The notes under the pieces: generated by a model | Database searches by the model: none | Seen by the model: only the letters and a program-made list of their open reading frames with translations | What the model was told of the DNA's origin: nothing | Shown: positions 2,371-63,908 of the stretch, one piece after another | Layout of the letters: each line of letters opens with the position of its first letter | How positions within the stretch are numbered: the stretch's first letter is position 1 | From: Euglena gracilis | Lineage: Eukaryota | Direction of reading: 5' to 3' | Assembly (NCBI GenBank): GCA_039621445.1 | Contig: CP154954.1 | Coordinates: 17,204,589-17,268,588, forward strand | DNA length: 64,000 bases | Translations under genes and position numbers: made by a program

Positions 2371-3707
<1,337 letters not shown>

Positions 3708-6700
3708 CAGTCATGTCGGTCACTCCCAGTCATTTCATAGGTATTTGGTGGCAGGCACTCCTTGAGGAGGTACGATGGACAAGTTTAGGCAAAAATGCAA
3801 GCCCCCCCCAAAAAGACAAGAGGAGACCAAGAATCGCCTTGCCAAAAGGGGTTGAGGGCTTCCCCAAGTCAACAGAACAAAAAAGCAGTCGGGGGGTGGG
3901 GACACACCAGCAACCTTGCATGTCCCCACATCCAATGGCACGGCGCAGGGATGGGCGGGCGAGTGGCGCCGACAGGCCCGCCGCCCAGTCAGCTCCCGGC
4001 GGGCCGAAATCCGCTGTGCACTGGGCCGCAGCCCTGTCCTCCGAAGTCGCATGCCTGCAGCGCAACGCGATACCTAACCCCCCCCCCCTCCCCGGAAGCA
4101 CAGCCCAACAACGTTCCAGGGATATGCCGTTGATACGGGGGGGGGGTCTACAACCCAGTCGGGGAGCTGTTGGAATCGACGGGGCAGGTTTGCACCCCAG
4201 CAGCCTGGGCTCCCTGACGCCAAAAGCAGGCAATGCTCAAGTCAACTTTGGCCGAGAATGCCAGGGAGGGTGGCTTCTCCGATATTGGGGGGTTCGTTTG
4301 CTGGAAGCATTTGGTAGCAGAACTGCAGAAGCAGAACTGCGGGGAGAAGGCTTCCCATATTCGATGCCTTCCAGGGGAAAACTAGTGATGAATTCTGAAC
4401 CCCCCACCCCTCGTCCAACAACCATCATTATTCCCCAACTGTCTTTGGCTAAATTCAGCCACTTTGGCCACTTTCTTGGCATTCTTTGGCCGCTTTTGCC
4501 ATTTTTTAGTCACCGTTGGCCATTTTGCCCAGCTTTTGGGAGACTTTTGGCCGTTATCACAATCTTCATGCACAACATGTACAAACATCCAGAAGGAATA
4601 GCAGCTTTTAGAAAAATAAGTCCATTTACGTCAATTTTTACCCATTTTGGGTAAACCGTTTTCGTTGGGGCATCGGCCTTTTTTCGACGTTTTTGGCATT
4701 TTCAGCCAGTTCATGATTGCTTTTGCCGTTTTTTGGGAGTGGGGCAGAAAAAAAAATACCGAAACTTATGAAATCAACAACTGGCCTGAGGGGGTGTTCG
4801 TTGGACAAGCCCAGTTGCTGTTGCTGGGGGGGAGAGGTAAATGTTTTTGTCAATGTCATCCACCAGGCAAAATTCCGAACTATTCTTACAAAATTGATTC
4901 TTCGTCAGGTGTTCAATTGTCCACGTCTGTCAATGACCCAACTTTTTTAAAAAGGGGGGGCAGAGCATATGGAGAGCCGGCCACGCGGGTTGATGTCGGG
5001 GCAACCAATGGTCCCCCACGGCAACGGAGGGGAGGACTGGGAGCCATAGGGGGACTTCGGGGAACGATGAGGGAGAGGACCCCCGGGTTTAGATGGGTCG
5101 GGACTTGGGGGCAGTGCTGGACATCACGCTGGCCATGAGGCAGGCACAGCATCCAACTCCCTGCCCACCATGAGCCGTCTGTGGTCAAAGCAGGCAAACA
5201 TTATTTTTAGGACACCTAAAAAACGTATAAAAAAAAAAACTTTAAAAAACGGCCAAATGTTTAGTACCTTAAACCCCTGAAAACCCCCCGTAAAAAATCA
5301 TTCTGGCAAAATCTCTTTCTGACTGATCAAAAATCCAATCGCAGAATCTCGACAAAAAAAATTTAAATCCAGAAAAGAAATTTCTGGCATCACGGGAACC
5401 GTGTCTATCCCCTCAAACTCGGAAAAATGAGGGTTTCGAGGCATTTTTCAAATGCCCAGACAGTCCTTAATAAACAAAATCCTTAAAAAATCTTAAAACG
5501 CCTTAAAGACCGTAAAAAATAAATTCAAAATAACTTAAAAATATTTTGTTTGACAAAGTTTTCCCCCAAGCAGTGCCTGAAACGCCATTTTTTTTGATAT
5601 TCTAATATTTAATGCTTCAGACCAGCGCTGCATATCAAGAGTGAAAACTGGTTGTATGGTCACTCTGTCCACCCTCTTACAGACCCAGGGGTTTTCCGGA
5701 AGCCCACCCTGCTGTATGTACAGCCCTGCTTTCAGCCATTATTTTATTCAGCATTTTTTTTTCTTAAGCCAAATATTTTCCTGGTTCCTGGTCCTTGGAT
5801 AAACCCATGCCTCTGGTCACGCATCCCCTCAAGACATCGCTGCTTACGGTAGCTCACCGATGGCTTCCAATGGACGAGGGGGGGGGGGGTCGCATCAGGT
5901 GGCTGGGAAGGGTGTTGGCTGGACCCATTGAAGCAAAGGCAAACCTGCCCTCCGTCTGAGGCGGGGTGGCTTCTGCTCCACTGCCACCCCGCAGCCGGAA
6001 ATGGAGGCTGTGGGCAGCCGGCCCCCGCCCATTGCCGAAATAGCTCATCGGGTTCGGTCGCTTTCCCAAATCGACAAAAAGTGGCTCGCATCGTGCGGGA
6101 AACATTTGTGGCGGCGCGGGACTTGACGTCGCCAATACACGCGAGCACGTGGCAACCACTGCTAGTTTTGGCATTCACTGATGCAACCGATTCAAAAGAA
6201 TTCCCGCTGGTGCTCGTGGGCACGTCCACCCTTGTCACCCTTGTCAGCCAGCACTGCCCCCTGCCACTAGGTGAGTATGATGAGCCTGCAAGACGGAGAG
6301 CGGGGGCAGGCCACAGCATCCATCAGCGAAATGTTACTGACCAAACCCCTCTGCCGTAGAGTCTCCCGGCTGGAACTGGCTTGATGTGGGGTCGAGCCGG
6401 GCACCACAAAAAGACCGAAACATAAAAAAAAGCCTAAACACCAGCAAATCATACAAAAAAAATCGATTTTGACCAAATTTTGAGCTAGGCAGTCTTTATC
6501 CGACCGATTTTTACCAATTTCCCCGTTTTACCCGTTTCGACCCAGTGTTCACCTTTGAAGGGAAAGAATACACCACACTCCAGCCGCCCTTCAGGAATTG
6601 CACAAGAAGAAGAAGGAAACTGCACAAGAAATAAAACCCGGCTCTGGAGGGGAGGGGGTCCGAGGCTGGGAAAAGACGCTGGATAGCTGGCTGGACACAC

Positions 6701-14807: not shown

Positions 14808-15504
14808 GGGGCAGAACGGGAAGCCCTGGTGGGGGGGGGGGGGGGACCCCCACCCCAACCCTAACCCTAACCCTAACCCTAACCCTAACCCTAAACCCCC
14901 CCTCCTGAAAACTGCCAAATTTTAACCTGAAATTTTTGAGATTTTTGAGAAAAAATGTGTTTCCATCAAAAAAATCATGTATTTTTCATTTTTTCCAAAA
15001 AAAAAAAAAAAATAATTTTCCGGCCAAAATCCTCGTTTTCCCGAAATTGGTGAAAATGCTGTGGTGGGGGGGGTCAACCCACCTGGGTGAAGAAAATGAA
15101 TGTCAAAAAAAAATTGGACCAAATTTTGGCGCATTCAAATTTTACTGACATTTTTTCTCTTTGAAATTCTTTGGACTTTCAGTGGCATGTTTTTCTTCAA
15201 AAACCTCTCAAAATAAAAATTTTGAGAAAATGTTGAATTTTTGGAAGGTGTGAAAAAAATGGGGTTTTGGGGGTCTTGGGGGGGGGCCCTATACGGGTCC
15301 CAAAATGGGTCCAAAAAAAAAAACGCCCGCGCCGAAGGCGCCAGAAAAAAATTTCGGGTCCAAAAATTGGTGCTCCCGGAAATACGGGAAGAGGTGGTGG
15401 GTGGGGGGGTCGACCCCCCCCCACCCACCATGCAGGGGGTGGGGGGGGGATCGACTCCCCACCACCACCACCCTGGCTGTTTGGCCGATTCCCGTTCTGC
15501 CCTG
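14808..15504. mobile_element. MITE family B copy with an internal (CCCTAA)n tract
   Basis: GGGCAGAACGGGAA...TTCCCGTTCTGCCCTG; body aligns with 8768-9407; flanked by G-runs. Confidence 0.85.
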
Positions 15505-17869: not shown

Positions 17870-19630
17870 CCACGGCCATTGGAGCCAGGGCCATTGGGGC
17901 CAACATTCTGCCAGTTACACCAATACCTTGTACAAGCTGGGCCATGGCGGCCACAACAGCAAGCTGGGCCATGGCGGCCAAAACAGCAATGGCCATGGCG
18001 GCCGATGGAACAAAGGCCAGGGTAGCCAACAATACCAAGGCCAGGGTGGCCAATTCCACAAACAGATGCCAGTGGCAGGGCCAGGACAGGTCAACAACAT
18101 CCCCCCAATCATTTCTTCATCTCAAACCCCATCAGGGGTACGGGATGGGTCCCCAGTGGCCCCCCAACATCGGCGCCCAACATCCAAAAGAAGTCAATGG
18201 GGACTATCAAAATTTCAAGAGTGGAGCCAACATCAAGAGGGCCAGTGGGGCCAGATTTATCATCAACTACATCAACAGTTTCAAGGCCACTGGGGCCATC
18301 AATTGTCAGAAGGGGAAAACCCCCAGAAGCTAACAGGCTGTCCCCCATCAGGGGGTTTCAATGTACGGTATCAGCCCCAGGAGGATGCCCGCAAAAAGGG
18401 GCAGTGGAGGACAAGGGGGTAACCCCCCCCTCAACATTCTTTGGCAATGCCCATGGCAGGGGCAAACCAAAACAAGGGGGAGACCCAAAAAGGGGCCCTA
18501 TGGTATGTCAATCGACAACACCAATGAACAAAGTGGAGGATCAGAGAGCCTGTGAGCAGAGCATGCACACCCCCCAGCCATCTTCAGAGAATGCTCAATC
18601 CCCAGAGGCACCAGTGGTGCAATGTCCAACACACCCAACCCAGCACCCAGAAAATCATCTAGTTGGGAAAATACATTCCATGGAGGAAAAATGGGGAGAC
18701 ACCCCCCTGTACCAGACACTTCAGAAAAGTCTAAAATGGTGGACAAAAAATGCCCCCCAAGAAACATGTCAATTGATGAAAAATGGAATTCAACCCCCCT
18801 GGGTTAATCCCCCAAAATTGTCCCCCCACACAAAACCCCAGGGCCAACCTGGACCTGAACCAAGCAGAAAAAATTCTGCTGGATTACAAAAAAACTGGGT
18901 ACAGTGAAACGAGTTTGGGATGCAGAAATCCATCATTTGATCCCATGGTTTTTCAATTTCACAACCAGAAGAGGGAACAACCAAATGGAGAATGACCAGC
19001 GACTGCAGAGAAAAAAATCAGCAGTTTTAAGTAAAACCGTTCAAGTTGGATCATATCCAAAACATTTTCCAGTTTTGGAAAAAGGCCACTGGGCAGCAAA
19101 AATAGACCTGAAGGATGCATATTTTCATATTCCATTAAGTCCAGGCCTGAGGCCATTTTTAAGGCATCAGGTGGGGGGGCAGACCTGGGAGTTTCAAACA
19201 GGCTGCTTTGGGCTAAATGTAACGCCCCAAATTTTCATGTCAGTGATGAAAACATTCAAAAAACTGTGGAGAAAAAGGGGCATCCAGGTGTTTATTTACC
19301 TGGACGACATTTTGCTGGTGGCTCCCACCCCAAACATTTTACAAAATCACCTGAAAACAGTTGTCAAAGATTTGCTGGATTCTGGGTTCAAAATCAATGT
19401 GAAAAAGTCCACCCTCCAGCCCACCCAAGTGGTAACCCATCTGGGTTTTCAACTGACACTTTCAGGAAGGAAAGCTACAGGTGCCCCCTCAGAAAGTCAA
19501 AACCATAAAAAAGGAGCTGGGAAAAATTGTGAAAAAAGATTGCGTGTCAAAAAAGCAGTTGGCTGCCATTTTGGGCCAAATAAGATGCAACCTAATGGCC
19601 CTGCCCTTTTTAAGGGCTTTTACAGACACC
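17870..19630 (+). mobile_element. DIRS-type (tyrosine recombinase) retroelement copy 1, left half: G/Q/H-rich ORF1 remnant and RT
   Basis: AAKIDLKDAYFHIP...FGLNVTPQIF...VFIYLDDILLVAP...GFKINVKKS.LQPTQ..THLGF, DIRS-type RT. Ends at the gypsy insertion. Removing the gypsy element and one CACC restores FTDTLA, matching FTDALA in copy 2. Confidence 0.9.
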
Positions 19631-20119
19631 TGTGAGTTAGGGGTGCTGAGTGCCCAAAACAACATAACTTAACACTACCCAACCTGATGACTCTGCAGTT
19701 AGGATTAGGAAAATCTTATTAGGAATTATAAATTACTGACTCCATCTGTCCCTGTGCAGGGCTCCGTCTCTCTGTCACACTGTCATTTTGTGGTTCAAGA
19801 ATTATCTGGTGAATTATCTGGAACCTATCGTTCTCTTACCCTTGGTTTGGACTTTGGTACTCTCACTTTGTGGTTTGCTTGTATTGTGCTGGTGGATTTG
19901 CTGATTGCTTGTGGATTTTTTATCAAAGGAAAGGTGTGAGCCAACCAACCCACCTGTTTTCACCCCCAAAAAAACCCGCAAAAACAAAAGAAAATGCATT
20001 TTTTAAAACAAAGCCGCGAGGGGAATTGAAAACACCCTGGGCAGGGTAAAAGATCCTACGCAAAGGGGTGCCGGCCCCGAGGGAATGGAAACTCAGGGAC
20101 AGGCACCACGGTTACAACA
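19631..20119 (+). repeat. 5' LTR (489 bp)
   Basis: TGTGAGTTAGGGGTGCTGAGTGCCC...CACCACGGTTACAACA. By hand, about 12 substitutions and 2 single-base indels versus the 3' LTR (~97% identity). Confidence 0.97.
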
Positions 20120-20131
20120 TGGTTGCAGAGG
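20120..20131 (+). promoter_or_regulatory. Primer-binding site (tRNA-Met(i)-like)
   Basis: TGGTTGCAGAGG directly abuts the 5' LTR. TGG complements tRNA CCA. One mismatch to the familiar initiator-Met PBS TGGTAGCAGAGG. tRNA identity is inferred. Confidence 0.8.
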
Positions 20132-20219
20132 TAGACTGCCCATTTTTGATTCCCCTCCAACATGCGGCTACGAACAACAAGCTGAAAAACGACAAGAAAC
20201 CGCAAAAACTGACGCTGAC

Positions 20220-23200
20220 ATGCCTGCTGCCTCAACTGCCATCGCTAGGATGGTGGAGCCGGCGGATGGCTGCCCAGCCCCGAACCAAACACTGGATGTG
20301 CCAACTGCCTTAACCGCCATCGTTAGGGTGGTGGAGCAGGCGGATGGCTTCCCAGCCCTGAACCAAACACTGGAAATGCCAGCTGCCTTAACCGCCATCG
20401 CGAGGGTGGTGGAGCCGGCAGATGGCTTTACCATGTACCAGTCACTGGACATCAACAGGTGGACTGAACCGGAACACAGACATTACAATGCCACGGACCT
20501 GTAATGACAGCCCACGTGTCATTGCCATGGTGCACATGGACCAGGACGACACCAAACAGACCGGTCCAGCACCAGATTACACAGAACTGGACGAAAACAA
20601 CGAACCGTACTCCGACGAACAGGTGTTTGCACCACAAAACTGGTACCAATTTCCAGAAACGGACACTCAGAACAACCAAAGCTGGCAAAGGGCAACAGCA
20701 CAGCAACCAGGAACCCAGAGTTTTGCACTGGTGGCGGTACGACAGAGCCCGGAACAACCAGACCGCCTCCAGGGTGAAACTGAAACTTCGTACCAGGAAC
20801 CCTCGTACAGTTCGTACGAGATTCCACAGCCGGAACCACAGAACCAGAACACTGACTGGGACTGGTGGTCGAACTTTGCGTACGAAACGGGACAGCTGAC
20901 CCAGTAATTGCAACAATTCAGATGCAAAACTGAACAGACGAACCAACAAACGGCAGAAACTCTGCAGCAGCTGCAACAAACAACGACGGAGTGGGTCAGC
21001 GAACTGCACGCCACAGTGAACAGACAGGGTGAAGCACTCATGACAGAAATAAACGGCAGACACGAAGAACTGACGACAGTCCTGGCCACAACGCAAGCAA
21101 ACATGGAACTGGTGACAGTGAACCAGAACAGGCTGTACCAGGAACATTTTAACGGAATGTCACAGCAGATCACAGAAATCAGGGAAATGTCTGGCTCACT
21201 GGGTGAAAAACTCAGGGAATTTCACAGTTTTCTGCAGATGGCAGGTGGAAACGCACAGAACCAGGGTGAACATCTGGATGGTTAACTACACCGACAGCGA
21301 GAAAACGAAAAAACAACTGCAGAACTGCAACAGAGATTGGCTGTGGTAGAAGAACGGGTCGCAGGAATCACAGGCGGAGTCCAAACGGTGAACAGCAAAG
21401 TGGACGAAGCTGTGGCAACAGTGTCCAGAAAAGTTGAAAACCTCGGAGGCGAAATCAGCAGTGTGGTGGAAAAAATTCTGAAGGACATGGGCAGTGAAAT
21501 CGAAAATCTGGCAGGACGGGTTCAGCAGCAGGAAACAAAAACGACAACAACAATTCAAAACTGTGATTACCTGCACAAAAAACTGGTCGAACTGCAGAAA
21601 ATCCCAGATCAGCAGCAGCAGATTACACAGCTGAACGAGGAAATCGGCAGACTGAAACGACAGGTGGAAACTCTGACCTCCAACGAAGAAAAACACAAAC
21701 AACGCACTGAACGTCTGAACCTGGAGGTCGGCAACCTGGGTCAGAGGGTGGACGAAACAGCCCAAACGGCTCAAAAACTGCTGGGTGAACAGCAAAAAGG
21801 GACCATTAAAACGGGAACACATGTCATATCTGAACATGCTAAATGGCTGGAAATGACATCTGCCATTGGCTCAATGACAACCAGGGTCGGTCAACTGGAA
21901 GCAAGACTGGCTGGTCTGACAACAAAAATGCAGAACGGGAAACACATGACAACGGCATTTGGCAGCATTTACATTCTCTGACCACGGAACTGCAAACACA
22001 GCAGAAACAGCGGACAGAACAGCTGGTGACCCTGGACAGAAAAATCAGTACTGTGACAAAAACGACTGAAAACCTGACTGAAAAACTGGAAAGGCAAAAC
22101 ACCCACTGCACAGGGGCCTTCGGGCCAGAGACAGGGGCCAACCCCCTGGCCAGTGGGCCTCCCTCGAGGACCCAGGCTGGACAGCCAGGGGCAGCCACTA
22201 CGGCCCAACGAACAGTACAACCCCCCCAGGGGGCAGACAGGGCCGCGGGCCAACGGGGATCGGGGACCCCACAACCCCGGAACCAAGCCCCCTGCAGCCC
22301 CGAGGGGCCATCCCACAGGACAACACGGGATTGGGACCCTAGAACCCCAGGCCTGGCCAACGGGGATGGGGACCCCACAACCCCTGGCCCAGCCACGGCC
22401 AGCCCTGAGAACGCCCGCAGAACCCCAGGCCTGTCAAACGGGGACGGGGACCCCACAACCCCTGACAGGTATGTTCAGCCAGAGCAGCCAGCACTGGGGG
22501 GACGAAACACCACACCCAAAAATGGAAGGAGGAGCTGCAGCATTGGGGACCGTTAACCCGGCTTCCCTGGTGAGGCAGCTCATCCGGCAAGAACTAAAAA
22601 CTGCCTTGACACCGTTAATTGCCCAACTGACTCGACAAACAGAACAACGGCCGACTGCAGTCCCGACCAGCCCAGCACTTACGACAAACCCGACAAGCCC
22701 AGCACCACAGCCAACCAAGCCGACTCAACAGATTTCACAGCCAGTGACGACACAACAAAACCCACAGTCCCGGACACGGGGCTTGTTCATGTGGGCGGAC
22801 GAAACTGAAACCCAGAACACAGCCACAACAACGTGGGTGGGACCCCAGATGGGGTCTACCCAAACTGCCATCCACCACATAGGAGAGGAAACAGTGGTGG
22901 CACCCGTGGCAACGGCCCCGACAGCATCCTTCGGGCTGCTGCTGGGTCCAGTGGGCGCGGCAATGACAAAAGACCTGGTAAGACCAACACTGCAGGGAAA
23001 TTTCGCAGATTTTGCCGTGAAATTTCTAATGTACCTGCAACGTGTGTCAGCCGGTCAGGGGTCCCTGACCGATGACCTGAAACTGTCACTGCTGGAGGGC
23101 AGCCTGGACAGTGCCAGCAAACTGGAACTACAACGCAGACAGGAACGCGGTGAGAAAATAAAATACCAGGAATTTTGGAACTGGATGTGCCAGAAATACG

Positions 23201-24462
23201 GTGGAGACACGCAATCAGCCATCAAAGACGAAATGCAAAGACTCAGCCAAAAAAACGGAAGGAAAACTGACACTGGAAGCGTGGAGGGAGTTTGAGGCCC
23301 ATTTCAAGCTCCTATACAGCAGGCGGGAGAATCCAGCAGAGGAAGACCTTACAACCTGGCGGCTGAAAAAATGCCTGAAACGCAACGCAGAAGCTGCATC
23401 ATGGAACAGGACCGCAGAAGTTAGGACAGACCGACACTGAAACTGAAAGGGGTTCCGAACATTACAAACGTCCCAGATGCAACAACGGAAGACGTTCGTG
23501 ACCTGGTGGCAGCAACTGTGGGCACAGGTGAAAAATTTCCGGTGGAACGGGACGGACAAAACTTCAGGATCAAACTGCACAGCAGCAGAGCTGCTGAACT
23601 GCTACTGATGAAAAACGGTTCAACGTTGCTGACTGGACACAAGCCACATTTCACACAGGTACAGGCCAAACTGACACTGGAAGAATTGTTCCAACGTGTG
23701 GAAACTGAACTCCGGTGCCAACAACAGTCAGACTCCCTTGGTAGGGGGTACAACGGCTGGCAGAACCAACCACGAGAAAACAGATCACGGTGGATGGACC
23801 GCAGGGAAGTCAAGGAGGAGGAGAAAACAAAATCCAGAAGTCGGACACCCCCTTCCAGATCCCGACCCAACTCCCCTGGACCTCGAACCCCAACACCCGA
23901 AAACCCCAGACCCCCTTCTCCACGCCAGCAGGTGCCCATGGCAGTTTCAGAACAGCCTTGCCAGGGACGGTACACCAACTGGTCAGACTGGGGACAAAAC
24001 GACTGGGGCAAAGGCAAAGGAAAGGGGAAATGTCAAAACTGGGGTTCAACCCAAAACTGGAATCAGAATTACGGCAAAGGCTACGATTCAGGAAAGGGAT
24101 ACAACTCTGGGAAAGGATACGATTCTGGGAAGGGGAGCGGGAAAGGAAAAGGCAAAGGGCAGCCACAGCCACAGCCTGCATCAACGAAAACTGAACCACA
24201 GCCACAACTCACAGGAGCCAGCCAACCAGCCACAGGGACAGCCAAAGACAGAAGCATCTTCCAGCAATCGCTGGCAGCCAGTTCAAAACATGGAACGGAA
24301 GTGAAGGGGCTGCGGCCTGAGGGTAGGGGGCGAGAGGGGCGACTCTCTGCAGACACAACCGAAACAACAAAACAAAACAAGGGAACCAGGTCCAGAGCCG
24401 CAGCGGTCATCAGGGTAGACGGGTCGTTTTTAAACAAGTTGTTTTTCAACAGCGTTTTTTAG
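20220..24462 (+). pseudogene. gag: gag-like ORF, fragmented: 78-bp repeats, long coiled coil, capsid-like helical domain, RRM-like domain, RS- and GKG-rich tail
   Basis: Successive + ORFs 20085-20504, 20422-20907, 20908-21285, 21337-21981 (heptad E/Q/L coiled coil), 22153-23295 (FADFAVKFLMYL...KLSLLEGSLD...YQEFWNWMCQKYG, retrotransposon capsid-like) and 23506-24462. Lies between PBS and pol. Broken by stops (e.g. TAA 20905, TAG 23422) and frameshifts. Start codon not resolved. Confidence 0.7.
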
Positions 24463-25871
24463 CAATCCGACAAAATGAAAACCGCCGAGCCGACATTCCC
24501 GACAACGAACCGACAGCGACTGCTGAAAACCAGCAATGCAGTTGCGCTGTAGCACCTTCTTTTTTGCCAGCCCGGATGAGAAAAGGAAACGATCTTCTTA
24601 TGCGAAAGTAATTTCCTTCCCCCAAAACAACTGCCAAGCAACCCCCTGTCGACTGCTCGCTGCGACGCGGAGCTCAGACCCCATACTGTTGCGACAGTTG
24701 AACGGGACAGTTTAACGGGGGAAAAAAAAGGTTGACATTTTTCCAGAAAGTCTTTCCAAGAATGTGCCAGGCAAAAGACAAATACTTGCTGCAACCTGTC
24801 GCCCAAAATTGGGAACCACCCGTGGCCAAAAATTGGAACCACCTGTGGCCAAAAAATGGCCAGCACGTCTGCCCAAAACTGCCCAAAACTGGACATTTCT
24901 GTGGCACAAAATTGGCCACCATCTGTGGCACAAAACAGGCCACCATCTGTGACACAAAACTAGCCACCATCTGACACAAAACTGGTGGCCCATCTTCTGA
25001 AGGCTTTTGCATCAGTTTTGAAATTTGTTGAGCTCTGGGGCAAAATCTGGGTGCATCATGGCCAAGGCCTGGGGCCCTGGGGCCACATCCTGAGAAAGAA
25101 TTTCTGGTTCCAAAATTTGCTGCCCAAAAAGCTGTCCTAGGTGCTGATCCAGGGCCCAGTTGTCTGAGACTTTTGTGCAGACTGCGTCTGCAGAATGTTT
25201 TTCTGGGATTTGTGCTGGAACTCGAAAAATTTTCATGTGTCAGTGTCAGCCCTGGGGCATTTTGAACCATTTTGACTTTAGTTTTGCTGAGCCCTGGGGT
25301 ACATTTTGCAGATTCAATGACAAAAGTCTTAAGCCCTGGGGCCATGGCAATTGTAACGTCTACAGTGTTCGCTATGTTACAACGCAGAAAACGTCGAAAT
25401 AAAGCTATCAGCCAGCTGTAGTTGTGGAGGGTGTTCTGGAACAACGAATAAGGGGTCACCAAACCCCAAAAGCGGCCGTTGACCATGAAGGAAGTAGAAG
25501 TAGAACTGCTGTTGATGATGAGGGTAACGTTGGTGTTCTTGCCATTCAAATCTTTGAGGGGCACCCGCCCCCTTTCCAGGCATGTGGTGTGCGAGAAAAA
25601 ATATACACACAGAAAGAGAGATATAAATTAAGAATTTAGTACTTCTTAATTCGCGATGTCATTCGACCGTAATCTACACGTTTTTTTGCTCTTCGACAAT
25701 TAAACACCTCGGAAACCGGTTTCCGACAAATAAACGTCATCCCCGCACACACTGGGTGATGAAGGTAAGAAAAAACCCCAAAAGAAAAACATCCTGACAA
25801 AAAAACGACTCCACAGCCCAGAACCGAAAAGGGAACAGGTCAGCCGCCGGTTCGGCAGAGCAGCTTCACAG

Positions 25872-26300
25872 TGGGTGTCTGAAAACTACCACGTGAAGGA
25901 AGAAAAAATGACAGGAATTCTCTCACACTTCGGGGTCCAGCCCCAGTTGGATGCCTTTGCAACGGAAAAGAACAAAAGATTCCCGCAATGGTGGGGATCG
26001 GGCAGCCCAGATGGAACTGACGCCTTTGAAAAAGACTGGCACGCAAAACTGCTGTGGATGAACCCACCATTCAGCAAAATTTCACAGGTGGTGAGGAAAA
26101 TACAAACAGACGAGGCCTATGCACTCCTCATGGTACCGAGATGGGTTCACAGACGATGGTACAGGGAAATCAAAAAGCGGGCAGTGATGTCAATGTTCAT
26201 CCCAGCGGGAACAAAACTGTTCGGACAGGGTGACAAGAACTGCAGGAATACACCGTGGCCTGTGGAAGTGTTTTTGGTATGCGGAGACAAAACACGCTGC
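25872..26300 (+). CDS. Amino (N6-adenine/N4-cytosine) DNA methyltransferase domain, DIRS/phage Dam-like, at the front of pol
   Basis: ORF 25875-26357: LDAFA (SAM-binding, D at 25950)...KN...DAFEKDW...LWMNPPF (catalytic NPPF, 26061-26072)...IxxVVxKI...ALLMVPRW...WY. Same motif chain as DIRS1 MT domains. Confidence 0.88.
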
Positions 26301-26521
26301 AAGTACCTTCCAGGTTTCCACAAACATTTCACCCCCTACACCCGACATCCAAGGTGAGGTTCGGCACAGCCCACGAGTACCCGCCAGCGGAGAACGAGGT
26401 GGACAGTGGTGAACAAAAAACCGACTTGGGGACAGAAAAACCATAGAAACGCATCAGAAAACTGCAGGAGGCAGCCACAGCGACACCAGAACGGGCCACA
26501 GCAGAAAAACCAAAACCAAAA

Positions 26522-27110
26522 ATGCTGGACCTGTTCTGTGGAACAAAATCGGTCAGCAAGGTGTATGAAAAAAGGGTTTCCAGGTGGTGACGGTTGATTC
26601 AGACCCCAGGTGGGAAGCGGATTACCAGGTGGACGTATTGGACTCGGACTTCAGAAAACATTTCAAACCTGGTGAATTCCACACGGTGGTGTGTGGAGTT
26701 CCCTGCACAGAATTCAGCATTGCCCTGACTACAAGACCCAGAAACCTGGAAAAGGGAAACAGTCTTGCAAAGAAAGCCCTGGAAATTGTGGATTTTCTGC
26801 AGCCGCAGAAATGGTGGTTGGAAAACCCAAGGTATGGATACCTGGGAAAACAAGATTACATGAAACCGTACCCGTACATTGACGTGGATTACTGTCAATA
26901 CACAGACTGGGGTTACAAAAAACCCACACGAATCTGGGGCAGCCCTGACATCCTGCAGGTACCAGCAAAACGGTGTGACGGGAAAACGTGCAAGAACCTG
27001 GACCCAAACAGTGGTGGTCACCTGGTAAAACTCAGCAACAAACACAACATTCCAGCCTTCAAAAAATTCAGGATCCCAGAACAACTGATTCAGGACCTGG
27101 CGGGGTTCCA
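26522..27110 (+). CDS. C5-cytosine DNA methyltransferase domain, with a 1-nt frameshift in an A-run near 26570
   Basis: Motif I MLDLFCGTKS (26522, other frame), then VTVD, DV(L), motif IV GVPCTEFS (catalytic PC 26701-26706), motif VI WWLENP (26821), DYCQY..GYKKPTRIWG (motif VIII-like) and C-terminal FRIPEQLIQDL. Same reading frame (26584-27732) as the downstream protease. Confidence 0.9.
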
Positions 27111-27359
27111 CGAACGGCTACGGCAAACCAGCCAAGCCCAGGCCGCACAGCAACAACCGCTGCAGCAGCCCAGCCCTGCCCAGACGGCACGACAAAACAT
27201 GCTCTCACAGCCCAGCCCAAAACTGGCAGGTCAACAGCCAAACCCAGATTCAACTGACAAAACAGATCCAGACCAAAACATTCGGCTTCCAAAACGACTG
27301 TGTGAACCGGTGTCCAAACTCCTGCTGGGGCAGGTCATCAGCAGAAAGAAAGCAAAAAA

Positions 27360-27680
27360 ACTCCTCATTGAAGTCCGTGCTGTGTTGCCGGACAGAAAAA
27401 AATTCTTCCTACAGGCCCTGATTGACACGGGAGCACAAGCAAACCTGGTGAAAAAGAACCTGATTCCACAACAAAATCTCAGACGTTCACAAAAACCCTT
27501 GGCCCTGATCACAGCGGACGGAACAAGGATGGAAGAAGGACTACACGAAGTCGCACTGGAACTGCAGTTTTCATCACGGGTGCACAACACGGACAGAACA
27601 AGGAATGGTCCACCATTGGAACATTCCATGACGCCGCCATCCAAGTGGATGCCATCCTCGGGTATCCGTGGATGTGGATG
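27360..27680 (+). CDS. Retroviral-like aspartic protease domain (frameshifted near its end)
   Basis: LQALIDTGAQANLV (DTG at 27424), ALITADGT, and DAILGYPW in the next frame. Confidence 0.92.
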
Positions 27681-28099
27681 GAACAACACCAACTGGGGGT
27701 TTTCCCACACCTACAATCATTGGCCCTCATAGGTGAATCACTGCGGCTGTTGTCCAGTTGGCACCAGCTGAAGGAACAAAAACACAGGGAACGGAAAGTA
27801 CACCAACTTCAGAAAAACATTTCAGAGGTTCGAGCAATGAATTTGCAGGTTCCTGCTGAAGCGGACCAGGAGGAGGAAAAACTGTTCGAAGACGAAAAAA
27901 CGCCCGAAACACTGGCAAAACAATTTCAGAAATCGGAAAAGAAATCTGACAGGGTCCACCGTGTTGTGGTGGTGCCAGAAGGACAGGAAACACAAGGCGA
28001 AAAGGTGGCTGAACTGGTGAAAAAACTGCAGCAGGATTATGAAGGAGTGGTTTTGCGAGACAAAATCTTCCCAGACCCCCCAGAACGCGGACCACTGGG

Positions 28100-28900
28100 T
28101 TATGGGAAAATCGAACTGAAACCTGGAACAGTTGCGAAAAAGCAAAGACCCATCCACATGACAGGACAACGCCGACAAGCACTCATCGACATGGTGGACG
28201 AATGGGTTAGGGACCTGAAAGTGGAAGACGGAAGTAGTGACTGGTCCAGCCCCACATTTGTGGTGGCCAAAAAAGGTGAAAAATGGAGAGGGGTGGTGGA
28301 TTTCAGAGCACTGAACGAGGCAACAATCACAGACGCCCATCCACTCCCTAGGAAAGAAGACATCCTAGTTCAACAAGGACAACGGGCCATGTACAGTGTA
28401 CTGGACCTAAAAGACGCCTTCCACCAGGTGCCACTGAGAACGGAGTCCAGACCATACACCTGCACACCTAAGGGAACAAAACAGTGGAGAGTGGTGGTCA
28501 TGGGAATGAAAAACGGTGTACCGATCTTCCAGAGGGTGATCGAGTACAGCCTGGAGGAGGTACATGATATTGCAAACCCCTACGTGGACGACATCATCGT
28601 AGGAACCATGTGGCAGGGAACTGAAGACAAAACCCTCAAACAACACGACAAGGACATCAGAAGGGTGATGGAGGCACTGAAAAAAACAGCAGCACGTGGC
28701 AGACATCAAGAAATGCAAATTTTTCGTGAAAGATGTGGAATTCTGTGGACACGTGCTCGGTGGTGGACAACGAAAACCTGCACCTGGGAAACTGATGGCC
28801 TTGGAAAAATGGGAGGAACCCAAAACGGTCACAGCCCTGCGGGCATTCCTGGGATTCACAAACTACTACGCCTCATACGTCCCAGGGAATGCGGAATTGG
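28100..28900 (+). CDS. pol: Ty3/gypsy reverse transcriptase domain
   Basis: IELKPG...WSSPTFVVAKK...WRGVVDFRALN...PLP...LDLKDAFHQV...MGMKNG...FQR...YVDDIIV (28581)...KKCKF..VEFCGH...LRAFLGFTNYY. Frameshift in A-run near 28680. Confidence 0.96.
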
Positions 28901-29044
28901 CTGCAGACCTAATGGAAAAACTGAAAGTGAAAAAGGGACAAGGAAAGAAGGGAGCCTGACACATGTGTTTTTCGGTGAAAAAAAAAAAGAACAGCCTTCC
29001 AGACCATCAAAGAAAAACTGCTCGGAAGCCTGAAACTGCAAACG

Positions 29045-29500
29045 GTGAACCCAGACAAACCGTTCATACTCAGGGTGGATTCAAGTGGCAGAGCCGTAGG
29101 TGCGGCTCTGGAACAATTTGCGGAGGACACTGCAGAAAAACCAGACCCAACAACAGCCATGACCAAAAAAACAGTACCCGTAGCTTTCTGTTCACAAAAC
29201 CTGACACCTGGGCAGGTCCGCTCGTGGTCTCCTAGGGAGAAGGAGACCTACGCAGTGATCCTGGCCCTGCAAAAATGGGCTTCCTGGATAGGAATGCAAC
29301 CGGTACTGGTGTTGACAGACCACAAGTCCATTGAGGCATGGGCAACGGAGGCGCTGGACACCCCCAGTGGACCAGCTGGACGTAGGGCTAGGTTGCACGA
29401 ACTGCTTTCGCGGTTCGACATAACCGTAGCATACGTACCTGGCAAAGACAACACGGTCGCTGATGCCTTGAGTAGGTGGGCCTACCCCGCCTCACAGGCA
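29045..29500 (+). CDS. pol: Ty3/gypsy RNase H domain
   Basis: PFILRVDSSGRAVGAALEQ...PVAFCS...WSPREKETYAVI...LTDHKSI...YVPGKDNTVADALSR. Confidence 0.95.
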
Positions 29501-30109
29501 TTCGCCGACGTCAGTATCCACGGGAGTGAGGAGGACGACCGACTCATGAAAGAAATCATCAAACAGGAGGAAAAGGAACAGAAAACTTGTATGGTGATCA
29601 ACGTGCAGACCTGGCACAGGCACTAAAACAGCTTCAGGAACCCGTCACTGTTGCCGTCACAACAAGGGGGGGAGCCAAAACGGGTGAAGATACGCCCACA
29701 GTGCCTGGTTCGACGAAAAATGGTGACACCCCTCAAAAGAATCAAAAACACCTCAAAAACCTGCAAAAACGACAAAGAAATGGGTTGTGAAGGAAACGAC
29801 TGTGGTGGAACCAAGCAAAAAACTGGCTGAGGCAACCCCAAGGGAGACCACGGATGAGGCGGGAAACCTGATCCGACCAGACCAACCAAAAAACAAAACC
29901 CCAGAAAATCCAAACACGGCCGAGGGACCATCCACTGAGGAAGACCCACCAAGGCGAAGACCCCTGGAAGAGAACCCCTGTGGAACCCCTGACAACAAAA
30001 AACTCAACAAAACACCAGGACGCGCAAGGTGCGTCATCCTCAACGGGGACACCCGTTGTACCTCCATCAAGGGGAGTGCACGCCCCGGAGCTTCAACAGG
30101 GGGAATCGA

Positions 30110-31320
30110 AAGGGGTGATGTACAGGGAATGGAAGAACGAGTACGAAAGTTGCCCAAGGTGGGGACCTGTGCTCAAGAACCTGAAGGAAACGGGGTTCAA
30201 AAACTGGCCTGACGGGTACCGATTCGACAACGGCATGCAGTACAAAAACGGTCTCCTGTGTGTACAAACTGGGTTGACTGGAAACGTAATTCGGGAACAT
30301 CACAAAACAGCCGGGCACCCAGGGTCAGCCCGACTGTGGGACCAGATGGGAAGGTGGTTTGCGTTTGCGGACCACCAGGATGCAAAAAAACTGACAGGCG
30401 AAATGATGACCATGTGTGAAACCTACCAAGCAACAGAACCCAGCCACCTACCATACAAGCGCCCCATTGAACCGACACCGATTCCTGCACACCTGATGGA
30501 CAGTGCTGCCATCGACTTGTTCTCACTTCCTGAAACGACCTTTGAAGGGAAAAAATACGACACGTTGGCGTTGTTTGTGGACAGGCTGAGTGGGTGGATG
30601 GTTGCAACCCCCCACCTGGCCAAGGTACTCACAGCGGAAAAGGTTGGAAAAGAAAAATGTTCAAACAGTGGGGAATTTTCGGGATACCCTTGGTGGTGAG
30701 CTCCGACCGGGGCTCCCACTTCACAGCCGGTTGGTGGAAAACACTGTGTGCTGCCCACGGGGTCCGTGTGGCATACGGGCAGGCATACCACCACCAAGCC
30801 AACGGACGGGCTGAGGTAGCGGGTCAACAACTCCTCCGAAAACTGGCAAAACTGGCTGCTGAAAAAGGGGTACCCTGGGTTGAACTCCTACCGAACGCCT
30901 TGAGGCCCTACACGACGTCCCAGGTGAAACGGGATTGACACCGTACGAAATTGTGTTTGGCAGGCACAGACCGTTGGCGGGATTGCCATACCAACCACAA
31001 AGGGAAGCGGAAGGGGCCACAGCGTTCTTGTAAAGGATGAAGGAACAAGACCAGTGGGCGAGTCTGGTCCTGAACGAAAAACAGCGTGAACGGGCTGAAA
31101 CGGTGAACCAAAAACGCAGAGAACCACCTGCCTTGGAAATCGGTTTCAAAGTGTGGTATCAACCCGAAAGACAACCTGGTACCGACAAACTCGAACCGAA
31201 GTGGAAAGGACCTGCTGTGGTGTTGGAACGGGTAGGACAGCACTCCTACGTGCTGGAACTTCGACCCGGAAACCGAAAACCTGCCCACCGTTCACAACTC
31301 AAACCCCACGTGGAGGACCT
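30110..31320 (+). CDS. pol: Integrase (HHCC zinc finger, DDE core, GPY/F module), frameshifted
   Basis: IREHHKTAGHPG...MCETYQ (second Cys altered), AAIDLF...VDRLSGW, VSSDRGSHF...YHHQANGRAE, KLEPKWKGPAVV. Confidence 0.93.
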
Positions 31321-31389
31321 CTACAACACAACTCCTGTCCCCCTCTACTTTTGGTCGGGCAAGGCACAACAGTTGGAGGTCGGACCTGA

Positions 31390-31597
31390 CGAGTGGGAGG
31401 TTGAAAAGGTGCTTAACCACCGTAGAAAAGACGGAAAACTTAAATTGTTTATTCTGTGGAAAAACTGGGACCCATATGATACTCAGTGGGAACCCCTGAA
31501 CCACTTCTTCCTCCGGACAAACAAAGATGTGGTCCAATACTGCAAAGAACGAGGCTTGGCCGTGGATGTGAGAGAGTTGCTTGATGGGATGGAGTGA
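31390..31597 (+). CDS. Chromodomain at the integrase C-terminus
   Basis: EWEVEKVLNHRRKDGKLKLFILWKNWDPYDTQWEPLNHF, then stop TGA at 31595. Canonical chromodomain pattern with aromatic residues at the cage positions. Confidence 0.92.
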
Positions 31598-32718
31598 CAC
31601 ATGTCACATACCCCTGGGCCCCCTCACAGACACCGTCACGTCGACACCCCGAACGACCCTAAAGCCAACCCCAACCCTACCACCCATACCGACCTCGACT
31701 GACTTGAACTTGCACACCTCTGGCAAAACCTGCCTGACTCAAAACGACAAAACGGGCCTGGGCAGCCCACCCGGCCAGCCCACCTGAACCTGAACCGCTG
31801 GCCAGCTCAACTCGAACCAGCCCAACAGACCTGAACAAGACCCGACCCGACCCGAATTCACTGACCTCAAGTGCCACTCTTCTGCCAATCAATCCATTCT
31901 TCAAATCTTCATCGTTGTTGTTGTGGGTTGGGTGGAGAACGAACCTACCCCTGAACTTGGCCAGCCTACCTAAAAAAAAACAACAACAAAACACAGCCCC
32001 CAACCCCAACCGTAACAGCCAGCAAAAACTGGGCAAACCGTGGAAGGGGAATCTGATTTTGACACAAAAACGCAGACCTGACCGACCCCGGGCCACCGGC
32101 CTGGGGGGGGGGAGGACCCTCCACAGCACCTACACACACCAGTCTACCCCCCAGAAAAAAATACAAAAATACAAAAAAAAACATTGTCCTTGACCCAGCC
32201 TGATTTTTAACCGAAAACCAGCCTTCACCTGATTTTTATAAAAATTCGTCCCCGGCCGGAGCCTGGCCACTTGGCCTGGGGGGGCTGGAAGACCCCAGCT
32301 GGACCCACCCCCCACCGAACGGACAGCAACCCCAGACACCGTATTGGCAAACCGAACCGAAAACGGCTGTCTAGGAGCCTGACCGTGACAAAACAACTCA
32401 CCTGGCCTGGGAATAAAAATTTCCTCAAAATTTTGACCGTGGCTGGCGCTTGGTTCACAACGGCGCCTGCCCCCCCCCCCAACGCCAAACAGCGCTAGGC
32501 GGGCTGGGGGGGGGACAACACACCAGACCCCGCACAGACCCAACTGCCAAAGGAGAACATTTGACTCAGCCCCCTGGTCAGAAAACGAACCTGAACGGCA
32601 CAGCCCCCTGAGGGGGGGGGACCCTGAACAACGGTCCCCTTGCTCGCCCCCTCCTCACAACGAGTGCACTCCGCACCCCTTCCTGTTGGAGTCGTGAAGA
32701 GTTGTAAACAACTCCTTC

Positions 32719-32729
32719 GGGAAGGGGAG
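32719..32729 (+). promoter_or_regulatory. Polypurine tract
   Basis: GGGAAGGGGAG immediately before the 3' LTR. Confidence 0.9.
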
Positions 32730-33216
32730 TGTGAGTCAGGGGTGCTGAGTGCCCAAAACATCATACCTTAACACTACCCAACCTGATGACTCTGCAGTTA
32801 GGATTAGGAAAATCTTATTAGGAATTATAAGTTACTGACTCCATCTGTCCCTGTGCAGGGCTCTGTCTCTCTGTCACACTGTCAGTTTGTGGTTCAAGAA
32901 TTATCTGGTGAATTATCTGGAACCTATCGTTCTCTTACCCTTGGTTTGGACTTTGGTACTCTCACTTTGTGGTTTGCTTGTATTGTGCTGGTGGATTTGC
33001 TGATTGCTTGTGGATTTTTTATCAAAGGACAGGTGTGAGCCAAACAACCAACCTTTTTTCACCCCAAAAAAACCCGCAAAAACAAAAGAAAATGCATTTT
33101 TTAAAACAAGCCGCGAGGGGAATTGAAAACACCCTGGGCAGGGAAAAAGATCCTACGCAAAGTGGTGCCGGCCCCGAGGGAATGGAAACTCAGGGACAGG
33201 CACCACGGTTACAACA
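32730..33216 (+). repeat. 3' LTR (487 bp)
   Basis: TGTGAGTCAGGGGTGCTGAGTGCCC...CACCACGGTTACAACA, followed by the TSD CACC. Confidence 0.97.
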
Positions 33217-34880
33217 CACCCTGGCAATTTTTTTGGTGGCGGAGTCCACATCCCCCTGGGACTCAAAACACCCCATTTCCCAGGAAATCAAGGCCCAATT
33301 AAAGGAAATAAAAATTCTGCTGGACACCTGGGGGGGAAGACCCTTCCCCCAAAATGCATCCAGAGTGTTGCTCTCAGACAGCAGCACGCATGCCTGGGGG
33401 GGGGGCTGGACATCAACACAGGAGAGATTGTGCAGGAATTTTGGAGAAAAAACTCCTTTTTGCACATCAATGTAAAGGAGCTCAGTGCAGCAATCAACAC
33501 TGTGAAAAGTTTGAGCAAACCTGGAGAAACCGTTTCCTTGTCAGTGGACAACCAGGTAATTTACTTTTACCTAACAAAAGGTTGGGGCAGAAAGGACCCC
33601 TTCAACAAAATGCTGAGACCATTTTTCAAGTGTTGCATGGAGCACCAAGTAAACCTCCAAGGCAACTGGGTACCTTAAAAAGACTGCCTAGCAGACCCCC
33701 ATCAGCAGATAGAAAATGGACAGGGGGTATTATTCTTTAGACCCCAAACTTTTTCAATGGCTCAGCAAGCAATTCACAAATTTCATAAGTCTGGAAACAG
33801 ATTTATTTGCCTCCCAGGCAACAAAAACTGCCCAATTTTGTGGCCAGGTGGCCCCATTGGGAAGCCACAGCAGCAGTAAATAAATGCATTACAATGTCCA
33901 CTGGACAACATGGGGGATCTTTATGCAAACCCCCTCCGGTCAATAATTCAACAATTTCTACCCAGGTTGAAAATGTTTAACCAGACCAAAGTTTTCATGG
34001 TCACCCCCAACTGGGATTCAGCCACACGGTGGCCCAAATTAATAAAAATGAAAGTTCCAGGGACCCCCTGCCTGAAACTCACCCCCACAGGGGCATGTTC
34101 ACCAACTGCAGGGGGGAGCAAATGCCACCCCCCAGGTGGCCCCTGGCTTGCATGATTTGCTCAGGCAAATTTTGGAGGGGAAACAAATTCAGGTTGAGAC
34201 CATTAACGATTCCCTGGGGAGAAACCCAAGCTTAAAACGTTGTCAGAGTGCTTTTGCACTTCTGTGGGTAATTTTAGAACACAGCCCCCCCCCCCTGAAG
34301 CCACCACAGACCAAGTGGCTGACGCTTTAATTCAATTCTTCCAATTTTCAAAGGCCTGTGGACCTGGTGGCCCCCTCCTAATTTCATTAAAACCCCCCTT
34401 CAGGGCCATCAGTGCAGGCACCATTTCTTCCATCACAAAAGATTTTTTGGCCAAACATGGTGTACCCCCCAGGTGGGGGGGGCCCACTCCACCGGAGGGG
34501 CAGGAGTTGGTTTACTCAAAAAATTGGGACTTTCTGCCCAAGAAGTTTGTGAAATTGGCCCGTGGAAGGGGGTGGAGGCTTTTGCAGCCCACTATCAACG
34601 ACTTGGTGCCCAAGGTGCCCTGGAAAATGCCCTGGCCCCCCTAATTTCAGTGCACAATCTGTCTCGTACTCCCTCGAGGAAAACCGAGAAGGGAGGAAGG
34701 GACACCGAGGCCGAAGCACAAAGACCTTGTGAGCCCGACCCCCTCTACCCGTAAAAGAAAATTTGTGTTCAAGAGCCCTCGGTCAGAGAGTGGGGGCCAG
34801 GGGGGGGGGAGAGGGGTTTGCGAAAAGTGCTTTTCTTTTTTTAACAAAGCAGTGATTTTTCATCTCTGCATCCTTCGTAG
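33217..34880 (+). mobile_element. DIRS-type retroelement copy 1, right half: RNase H, amino-MTase, internally deleted tyrosine recombinase, terminal sequence
   Basis: RH: LSDSSTHAWG, HINVKELSAA, SVDNQVI. MT: DLFAS (33800), DLYANP (33922), MVTPNW..W. YR C-terminus: ISAGTISSITKDFLAKHGV..AHST(R>G)GAGV...GPWKGVEAFAAHY (HY 34590). Many frameshifts; right end approximate. Confidence 0.85.

Positions 34881-47472: not shown

Positions 47473-63908
<16,436 letters not shown>

Follow-up and report, generated by a model that had tools for sequence, protein, structure and literature searches.

The 64,000-nt stretch of DNA analysed here (hereafter the window; Euglena gracilis contig CP154954.1, positions 17,204,589 to 17,268,588, forward strand) holds a 13.6-kb LTR retrotransposon of the Ty3/gypsy chromovirus type, which spans positions 19631-33216 on the plus strand and is framed by a 4-bp target duplication. 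Its 5' LTR (19631-20119, +) and 3' LTR (32730-33216, +) form a direct repeat that is 98% identical over the first 300 nt; both have TG...CA ends, and CACC stands just before the former and again, as the target duplication, right after the latter. A candidate primer-binding site (20120-20137, +), which begins with TGG immediately after the 5' LTR, is suggested by its position only, and a polypurine tract read from the sequence, GGGAAGGGGAG (32719-32729, +), abuts the 3' LTR. The frames between 21286 and 24462 (+) in the list of open reading frames (ORFs) are coiled-coil (21286-21981, 22078-23295) and Gly/Lys-rich (23425-24462); they match no Pfam family above threshold, and we call them the gag region by position only.

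Pol follows on the same strand in the order Dam-like methylase, C5 methylase, protease, reverse transcriptase (RT), RNase H, integrase and chromodomain. The first domain, a Dam-like N6-adenine methylase (25734-26357, +), carries an NPPF motif and matches PF05869 above the cut-off (E = 1.2e-8, 35.3 bits). The second methylase domain of Pol, a compact C5 cytosine methylase (26522-27110, +) with the motifs FCGTKS, PCTEFS, ENP, DYCQY..YKKPTRIW, CDGKTC and FRIP, occurs as one copy only in the 64-kb window, as judged by tblastn. The aspartic protease (27330-27480, +) is marked by LIDTGAQ, a motif common to the relatives of this element, and matches PF13975 and PF02160 weakly (residues 267-324, counted in the frame from 26569). 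A frame change near 27601 joins the protease frame to that of the RT (27426-29033, +; PF00078, E = 1.9e-19), which is followed by RNase H (28979-29626, +; PF17917, 1.1e-18; PF17919, 1.7e-17). The zinc-binding domain and core of the integrase lie over two frames (29872-30938, +), with matches to PF17921 (0.0024) and PF00665 (2.8e-5) that are both below the cut-off; the same domains are clear by Pfam in the relatives P0126 and L053. The C-terminal SH3-like part of the integrase (PF24626, 1.4e-5) and a chromodomain that is above the cut-off (PF00385, 4.4e-7, 30.2 bits) occupy 31034-31597 (+).

An earlier note on this DNA, made from the letters alone, had read 26522-27110 as a compact C5 methylase of about 195 aa, and all of the motifs it listed are present there on the plus strand: MLDLFCGTKSVSKVYEK, PCTEFS, LENP, DYCQYTDWGYKKPTRIWG, KRCDGKTC and FRIPEQLIQDL. 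The stretch is not, however, a single open frame. From the ATG at 26522, frame 2 encodes MLDLFCGTKSVSKVYEK, including motif I, and then meets a TGA at about 26588, and the remainder of the domain is read in frame 1 from 26569 (KKGFQVVTVDSDP...VPCTEFS...WWLENP...DVDYCQYTDWGYKKPTRIWG...KRCDGKTC...FRIPEQLIQDL); one base missing from the A-run at 26568-26573 splits the two, and other copies have one A more at this place. Nor is there a protein of about 195 aa, as no stop is found at 27110 and the frame passes through a Gln/Pro-rich linker into the aspartic protease. An intact relative is P0107, a 544-aa metagenome protein that is 96% identical to the window C5 domain (match E = 6.3e-120) and has the Dam-like domain, the C5 methylase and the protease in a single open frame, so that the domain is continuous upstream with a Dam-like domain. 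The earlier note overlooked both the frameshift and this fusion.

Further breaks surround the domain. The frame of the Dam-like domain is lost near 26331, in a C-run where other copies have an additional C; an in-frame TAG stands at 26444-26446, where P0107 has Gln; the frame change near 27601 falls in a G-run where other copies have an additional G; and the frame falls back by one a further four times downstream in pol. Between 25734 and 31597 we counted about seven frame changes, all in the same direction with one base missing each, and the three that were examined lie in base runs. A programmed frameshift at GAAAAAAG was set aside, because the breaks next to it fall in runs of C and of G and because intact copies exist. 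Given the gaps at 26331, 26568-26573 and 27601, the TAG at 26444 and the further breaks in pol, the window copy is predicted, as read, to be unable to make the enzyme, and the locus is probably one defective copy of a highly repeated element.

We aligned the contigs of four public sequencing runs to 25600-27800. The longer base runs at 26331, 26567 and 27601 account for 15-40% of the summed depth in two runs that appear to be DNA, which may be the assembly's own data and whose contigs average under 50 letters, and in the two RNA-labelled libraries all four contigs over these sites carry the extra base. Whether the frame breaks are real, with the window copy, like most genomic copies, being a dead relic that is propagated by intact elements or by segmental duplication, is in our view evenly balanced: the minority share of the extra base in the two presumed DNA runs and the TAG at 26444 in place of the Gln of P0107 speak for it, whereas the uniform loss of one base, in base runs wherever examined, is typical of long-read error, the presumed DNA runs, with their very short contigs, may not be independent of the assembly, and every RNA-derived contig over the sites has the longer run. 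The single-base breaks may instead be homopolymer errors of the assembly. The same 2.2-kb stretch is matched at >=90% identity by about 2600-3000 contigs per run (runs X1 and X10), and such thousands of matches imply that the family is very highly repeated in the organism of these runs. One leaf-litter RNA library also has pieces that are 94-97% alike to the stretch.

Against the Pfam profile PF00145 the window domain reaches E = 0.003 and 17.5 bits, compared with a gathering threshold of 22, and its relatives score 22.6 (P0107, which just passes), 21.0 (P0126), 29.1 (L026) and 26.0 bits (L024); P0003, another relative, has no Pfam match at E <= 1e-3, and NCBIfam returned nothing for either the window domain or P0003. 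The Pro-Cys and ENP signatures of the C5 superfamily are present in the window as motif IV (VPCTEFS) and motif VI (LENP), and motif I is recognisable with its second Gly changed to Lys in both the window and P0107 (FCGTKS, compared with FxGxG). Classical C5 enzymes, as described in the literature on M.HhaI, have QxRxR as motif VIII and GNxVP as motif X. Neither of these could be recognised by sequence in the window domain, where the equivalent places are held by Y-x-K-P-T-R-I-W and F-R-I-P, and the target-recognition region is about 45 residues long.

We compared 51 retroelement-linked domains with a viral set of 28 rows (27 viral ORFs and P0107 as reference). The earlier note had named loss of the PC and ENP motifs among copies as an observation that would tell against it; the catalytic Cys of the former and the catalytic Glu of the latter are present in 51/51 retroelement and 28/28 viral rows, and the same holds for the Lys and Thr of KPT and for three further Cys (in YC, and in C-x4-C). 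The first Gly of motif I is kept in 50/51 and 28/28 rows, respectively, and a His that follows the Cys pair in 47/51 and 23/28. W47, P100, G136 and P140 are kept in the retroelement rows but not in the viral rows. From this pattern, the three non-catalytic Cys and the nearly invariant His may form a zinc site that holds the short recognition region.

The fold was examined by modelling P0003, which shares 65% identity with the window domain, in AF2 (mean pLDDT 82). The best hit to this model in a viral structure library is a 218-aa protein of Tetraselmis virus 1 named as a putative cytosine DNA methyltransferase, with 33% identity and an rmsd of 2.2 over 215 columns (E = 1.5e-21; TM 0.83 on the target). 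In a Foldseek search of the PDB, DNMT3B/3A come first (E = 3.6e-9, TM about 0.46 on the query), and in fold similarity DNMT3 is either first or level with the first; the alignment of the model to DNA-bound M.HhaI spans the whole chain (residues 10-327). On the strength of these structure matches, the domain is predicted to have the fold of a whole C5 methylase. The ranking of DNMT3 probably reflects the short recognition region that the two have in common and not kinship.

The matches to the motif-bearing sequence go far beyond chance: the 182-aa part in frame 1 matches 65 of 80 candidate proteins of similar length at E <= 1e-3 (best 3.4e-76), along with 44 of 174 longer candidates. With a profile built from 22 members, the number of matching representative proteins is 10381 at E <= 1e-3, of which 1133 reach E <= 1e-30; many are 195-230 aa long, and a scan of IMG/VR yielded 139 relatives out of 176 pattern matches. 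Full-length relatives on viral contigs are 31-40% identical over query residues 22-216. At 27 IMG/VR loci the relative is a free-standing ORF of 202-254 aa that covers positions 4-205 of the family HMM (E = 1e-53 to 1e-75), and the free-standing viral relatives are annotated as DNA methylases, these being names, not tests. Of five such viral records selected, three were searchable, and an NCLDV major capsid gene is present in all three, one of which is a 182-kb record with terminal repeats, and the methylase has ribonucleotide reductase, an SNF2 helicase and a D5-like primase among its viral neighbours. The methylases of the Tetraselmis virus 1 type share with the window domain the length class, the fold and the invariant residues, including the three non-catalytic Cys, but the giant-virus methylases are free-standing genes, whereas the window domain is part of a fusion, flanked by a Dam-like domain and a protease.

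More distant relatives are found outside the giant viruses. The phage family phrog_757 matches the window domain at 1.5e-10 (compared with 0.003 for the generic PF00145) and is itself matched by a Halorubrum ORF at 4.4e-22; full-length relatives are present in a Halorubrum genome, and a shorter match in Methanoperedens. By tblastn, methylases of Inoviridae, of Haloferax tailed virus 1 and of mycobacteriophages were detected at 25-30% identity. The phrog_757, haloarchaeal and Haloferax tailed virus 1 enzymes are thus related, but only at this level of identity, and for most phage members the alignment to the compact family stops after the N-terminal two thirds. End-to-end alignment and common invariants (the three extra Cys and K-x-T) place the window domain in the compact viral and archaeal family of ~200-220 aa. 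Judged by sequence, it is a member of a very large family of methylases of this size, with free-standing members in the giant viruses of algae and protists and more deeply related ones in archaea and phages.

Some relatives carry labels that call for care. A contig of a Verrucomicrobiaceae metagenome-assembled genome (MAG) (L002) has an open frame of 1325 aa in which the methylase comes after pol-like sequence, and one of a Pacearchaeota MAG (L001) has a 219-aa methylase that groups with giant-virus rows; both are small contigs that look mis-binned from eukaryotic or viral DNA. In three Symbiodinium relatives (P0148, P0150 and P0088; ~44% identity), the methylase adjoins, by fusion or as a neighbour, a domain of P-loop ATPase or viral helicase type (PF01443, PF13604) and not RT; these three may be integrated viral genes.

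When the family profile was searched against PDB sequences, 60 matches were returned at E <= 1. Those to solved enzymes are weak and confined to the N-terminal half, about motifs I-VI: DNMT1 at 5e-4, DNMT2 at 1e-3 (chains from 1e-3 to 3e-3), a bacterial Dcm-type enzyme at 1.4e-3, DIM2 (9baq) at 0.012, HaeIII at 0.027 and HhaI at 0.036, with no DNMT3 chain among the 60. The DIM2 chain ranks first when a single sequence is used as the query, at an E of 0.22 that is not significant, and neither this score nor that of the profile shows a special affinity of the C5 domain to DIM2. The DNMT1 match extends over motifs II-VI only, and the RFTS, CXXC and BAH domains that accompany DNMT1 are replaced here by Dam-like, protease, RT, RNase H, integrase and chromodomain companions. 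Compared with the catalytic domain of DNMT3A/B, the window domain is 17-19% identical and about 70 residues shorter, and it comes without PWWP or ADD. Since the domain falls in the compact family of giant viruses, archaea and phages, it does not appear to be a cut-down DNMT1 or DNMT3, and in this respect the earlier note, which had called it a compact viral or prokaryotic type of enzyme, was right.

The compact methylase adjoins pol or Dam-like sequence in 73 proteins or ORFs. Its position there varies: it precedes the protease, with the Dam-like domain on one side of it or the other, follows RNase H, or closes pol (L053, L002, P0215 and P0262). In a FastTree phylogeny of 164 rows, 45 of the 49 retroelement rows fall together with the window in one 73-row clade (support 96). 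An 88-row IQ-TREE phylogeny under a mixture model places the window in a 31-row retroelement clade (SH-aLRT 99) and the four end-of-pol rows in a separate, 97-supported clade with a giant-virus row. In a 66-row tree, for which 16 compact ORFs from viral contigs taken to be phage served as the outgroup, the window belongs to a 12-row retroelement clade (SH-aLRT 99); with this phage-type outgroup the archaeal members are basal, and the giant-virus, Symbiodinium and retroelement rows form one 99-supported clade. In both the 88-row and the 66-row trees, the main retroelement clade and the giant-virus lineages arise from a common polytomy, and the clade is not nested within those lineages. Forcing all 16 retroelement rows into a single clade costs 53 log-likelihood units (p-AU 0.02), in a post hoc test of 49 rows under LG+G4, weaker than the mixture model, with groups that were named after the tree had been seen. 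These trees thus mark the compact family as one of prokaryotic-virus and giant-virus type. The reading of the earlier note, a capture from a virus or prokaryote, is largely right as to the type of enzyme; for the main clade, a transfer from giant virus to retroelement is a conjecture.

LTR elements with a chromodomain, a DAM and a DNMT have been described in Euglena gracilis and Cymbomonas tetramitiformis and named EpiLTRs (bioRxiv 10.64898/2026.05.21.726589, May 2026). Compared by description with the relevant passages of this preprint, the window element corresponds to an EpiLTR, as LTRs with a target duplication, PF05869, the C5 domain and PF00385 occur in one element. The likeness extends to a single Pol that unites both methylases, the Dam-like adenine and the C5 enzyme, with a chromodomain, to the nesting of the window element with an RT-bearing element of DIRS-like appearance, as those passages note for Euglena, and to a second arrangement in which the methylase closes pol at its 3' end, which is seen here in L053, L002, P0215 and P0262. 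According to the same passages, the DNMTs of EpiLTRs fall into a single group that is sister to DNMT4 and separate from those of the Symbiodinium and charophyte elements (10.64898/2026.05.21.726589). Our results differ on two points: the nearest free-standing relatives found here are giant-virus methylases, whereas the preprint puts the DNMT beside DNMT4, and the preprint treats the two EpiLTR DNMTs as one group, whereas a single clade of all retroelement rows was rejected here (p-AU 0.02, with the limits given above). The passages of the preprint on EpiLTR DNMTs do not mention compact giant-virus methylases as relatives.

Methylases in other retrotransposons are less similar. The relevant parts of de Mendoza et al. 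2018 (PMC5890265) report DNMTs in Symbiodinium LINE and DIRS elements (SymbioLINE-Dnmt and SymbioDIRS-Dnmt3) and Dnmt3 in charophyte retrotransposons. These share with the window a C5 methylase within the coding region of a retrotransposon, and self-methylation of the new copy was proposed there; however, they are LINE or DIRS elements, or carry Dnmt3, whereas the window element is an LTR and integrase element with a compact methylase and a Dam-like partner. SymbioLINE-Dnmt has its methylase in ORF1 and an endonuclease and RT in ORF2, an arrangement that the window element, with its LTRs, protease, integrase and chromodomain, does not have, and Symbiodinium relatives of the window domain are about 44% identical to it. 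A search of Sarre et al. 2024 (PMC11244446) for viral DNMTs gave nothing useful. The class of element is thus already described in the 2026 preprint, and what is new is the link to the viral family and the evidence for two captures.

Taking these results together, we consider it likely, with good confidence, that 26522-27110 encodes the C5 methylase part of Pol in a Ty3/gypsy LTR retrotransposon with a chromodomain (19631-33216), an element of the EpiLTR kind, that this part has a Dam-like adenine methylase directly upstream and a miniature C5 fold belonging to the family of giant viruses, archaea and phages, and that this copy, as it reads, is broken. In an intact element, the domain would be made as part of Gag-Pol and might methylate cytosines in the newly made DNA copy of the element or in the DNA where it integrates, and the chromodomain would steer integration. 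In the literature we found no activity test of a member of the compact C5 family. A reading in which the domain no longer methylates DNA, and either acts on RNA like DNMT2 or serves Pol as a non-catalytic module that binds DNA or SAM, could draw on the profile matches to DNMT2 chains, on the unrecognisable motifs VIII and X and on the Lys that replaces the second Gly of motif I in the window and P0107. We regard it as quite improbable, as the catalytic Cys and Glu are invariant in all 51 retroelement rows, the DNMT2 match is no better than those to DNA methylases, the P0003 model aligns to the full DNA-bound M.HhaI chain, and the free-standing viral relatives are named, if only by annotation, as DNA methylases.

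As to where the domain came from, we give somewhat less than an even chance to a reading in which the C5 module of dual-methylase LTR elements was drawn from a pool of miniature giant-virus methylases and not from a host DNMT; this pool would derive from archaeal and phage enzymes and would have been tapped at least twice, once for the front of Pol beside the Dam-like domain and once for its end, and a zinc site of the Cys3-His type would hold the tiny recognition region of the module. Under an alternative reading, the domain came from a eukaryotic host DNMT (DNMT4/DIM-2 or DNMT3) and was shortened after capture, giant viruses having taken it from eukaryotes or retroelements. Such an origin would agree with the placement of EpiLTR DNMTs as sister to DNMT4, with a bootstrap of 100 for their monophyly, in the corresponding passages of the preprint (10.64898/2026.05.21.726589), with the first rank of DIM2 in the single-sequence PDB search, although not at a significant E, with the first rank of DNMT3B/3A in Foldseek, and with a main retroelement clade that is not nested within the viral rows. 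It nevertheless appears unlikely to us: with the profile, DIM2 scores more weakly than DNMT1 and no DNMT3 chain is matched at E <= 1; compact members of Methanoperedens, haloarchaea and contigs taken as phage branch below the eukaryote-linked clade; phrog_757 is a better match than PF00145; and the second retroelement group lies inside the 97-supported clade with a giant-virus row.

Retrotransposons with DNA methylases of their own can place epigenetic marks on their own DNA or at the sites where they land, and the source of such methylases shows how tools are traded among viruses, mobile elements and host genomes. A link to the abundant ~200-aa family of giant-virus methylases would alter the DNMT4-related origin that the preprint's passages give for the EpiLTR DNMT, and the compact family points to a minimal C5 methylase. 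If the origin from the viral pool is true, the domain would represent the smallest natural DNA C5 methylase scaffold among those examined here, as well as a case of gene flow from virus to retrotransposon; for the window locus alone the result is modest. CpG depletion was considered as a trace of self-methylation and dropped, as the observed/expected ratio of 0.59 in the element, compared with 0.56 and 0.48 in its flanks, indicates no element-specific depletion and hence no element-specific trace.

The LTR element itself sits inside a second RT-bearing element, whose frame resumes across the insertion. This outer retroelement (18859-19630 and 33217-34155) has an RT match just left of the insertion (PF00078, E = 8e-22), and its part at 33880-34152 is weakly like the Dam-like domain (E = 0.025). 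By general features of such elements and by this weak match, the outer element is probably DIRS-like, which would fit a DIRS origin of the Dam-like domain. Elsewhere in the window, ten other long frames gave no match in Pfam. Two stretches (2001-4000 and 52001-54000) have an extreme composition, with an AT skew of -0.68 and with a G+C of 0.69 and a GC skew of -0.81, respectively, and long frames are found in several phases and on both strands at 2312-3292 and 52129-53707; these composition-skewed stretches are probably simple or satellite repeats. The sole RNA gene found in the window by Rfam and tRNA scans is a tRNA-Gly with the anticodon ACC at 15393-15472 (ARAGORN).
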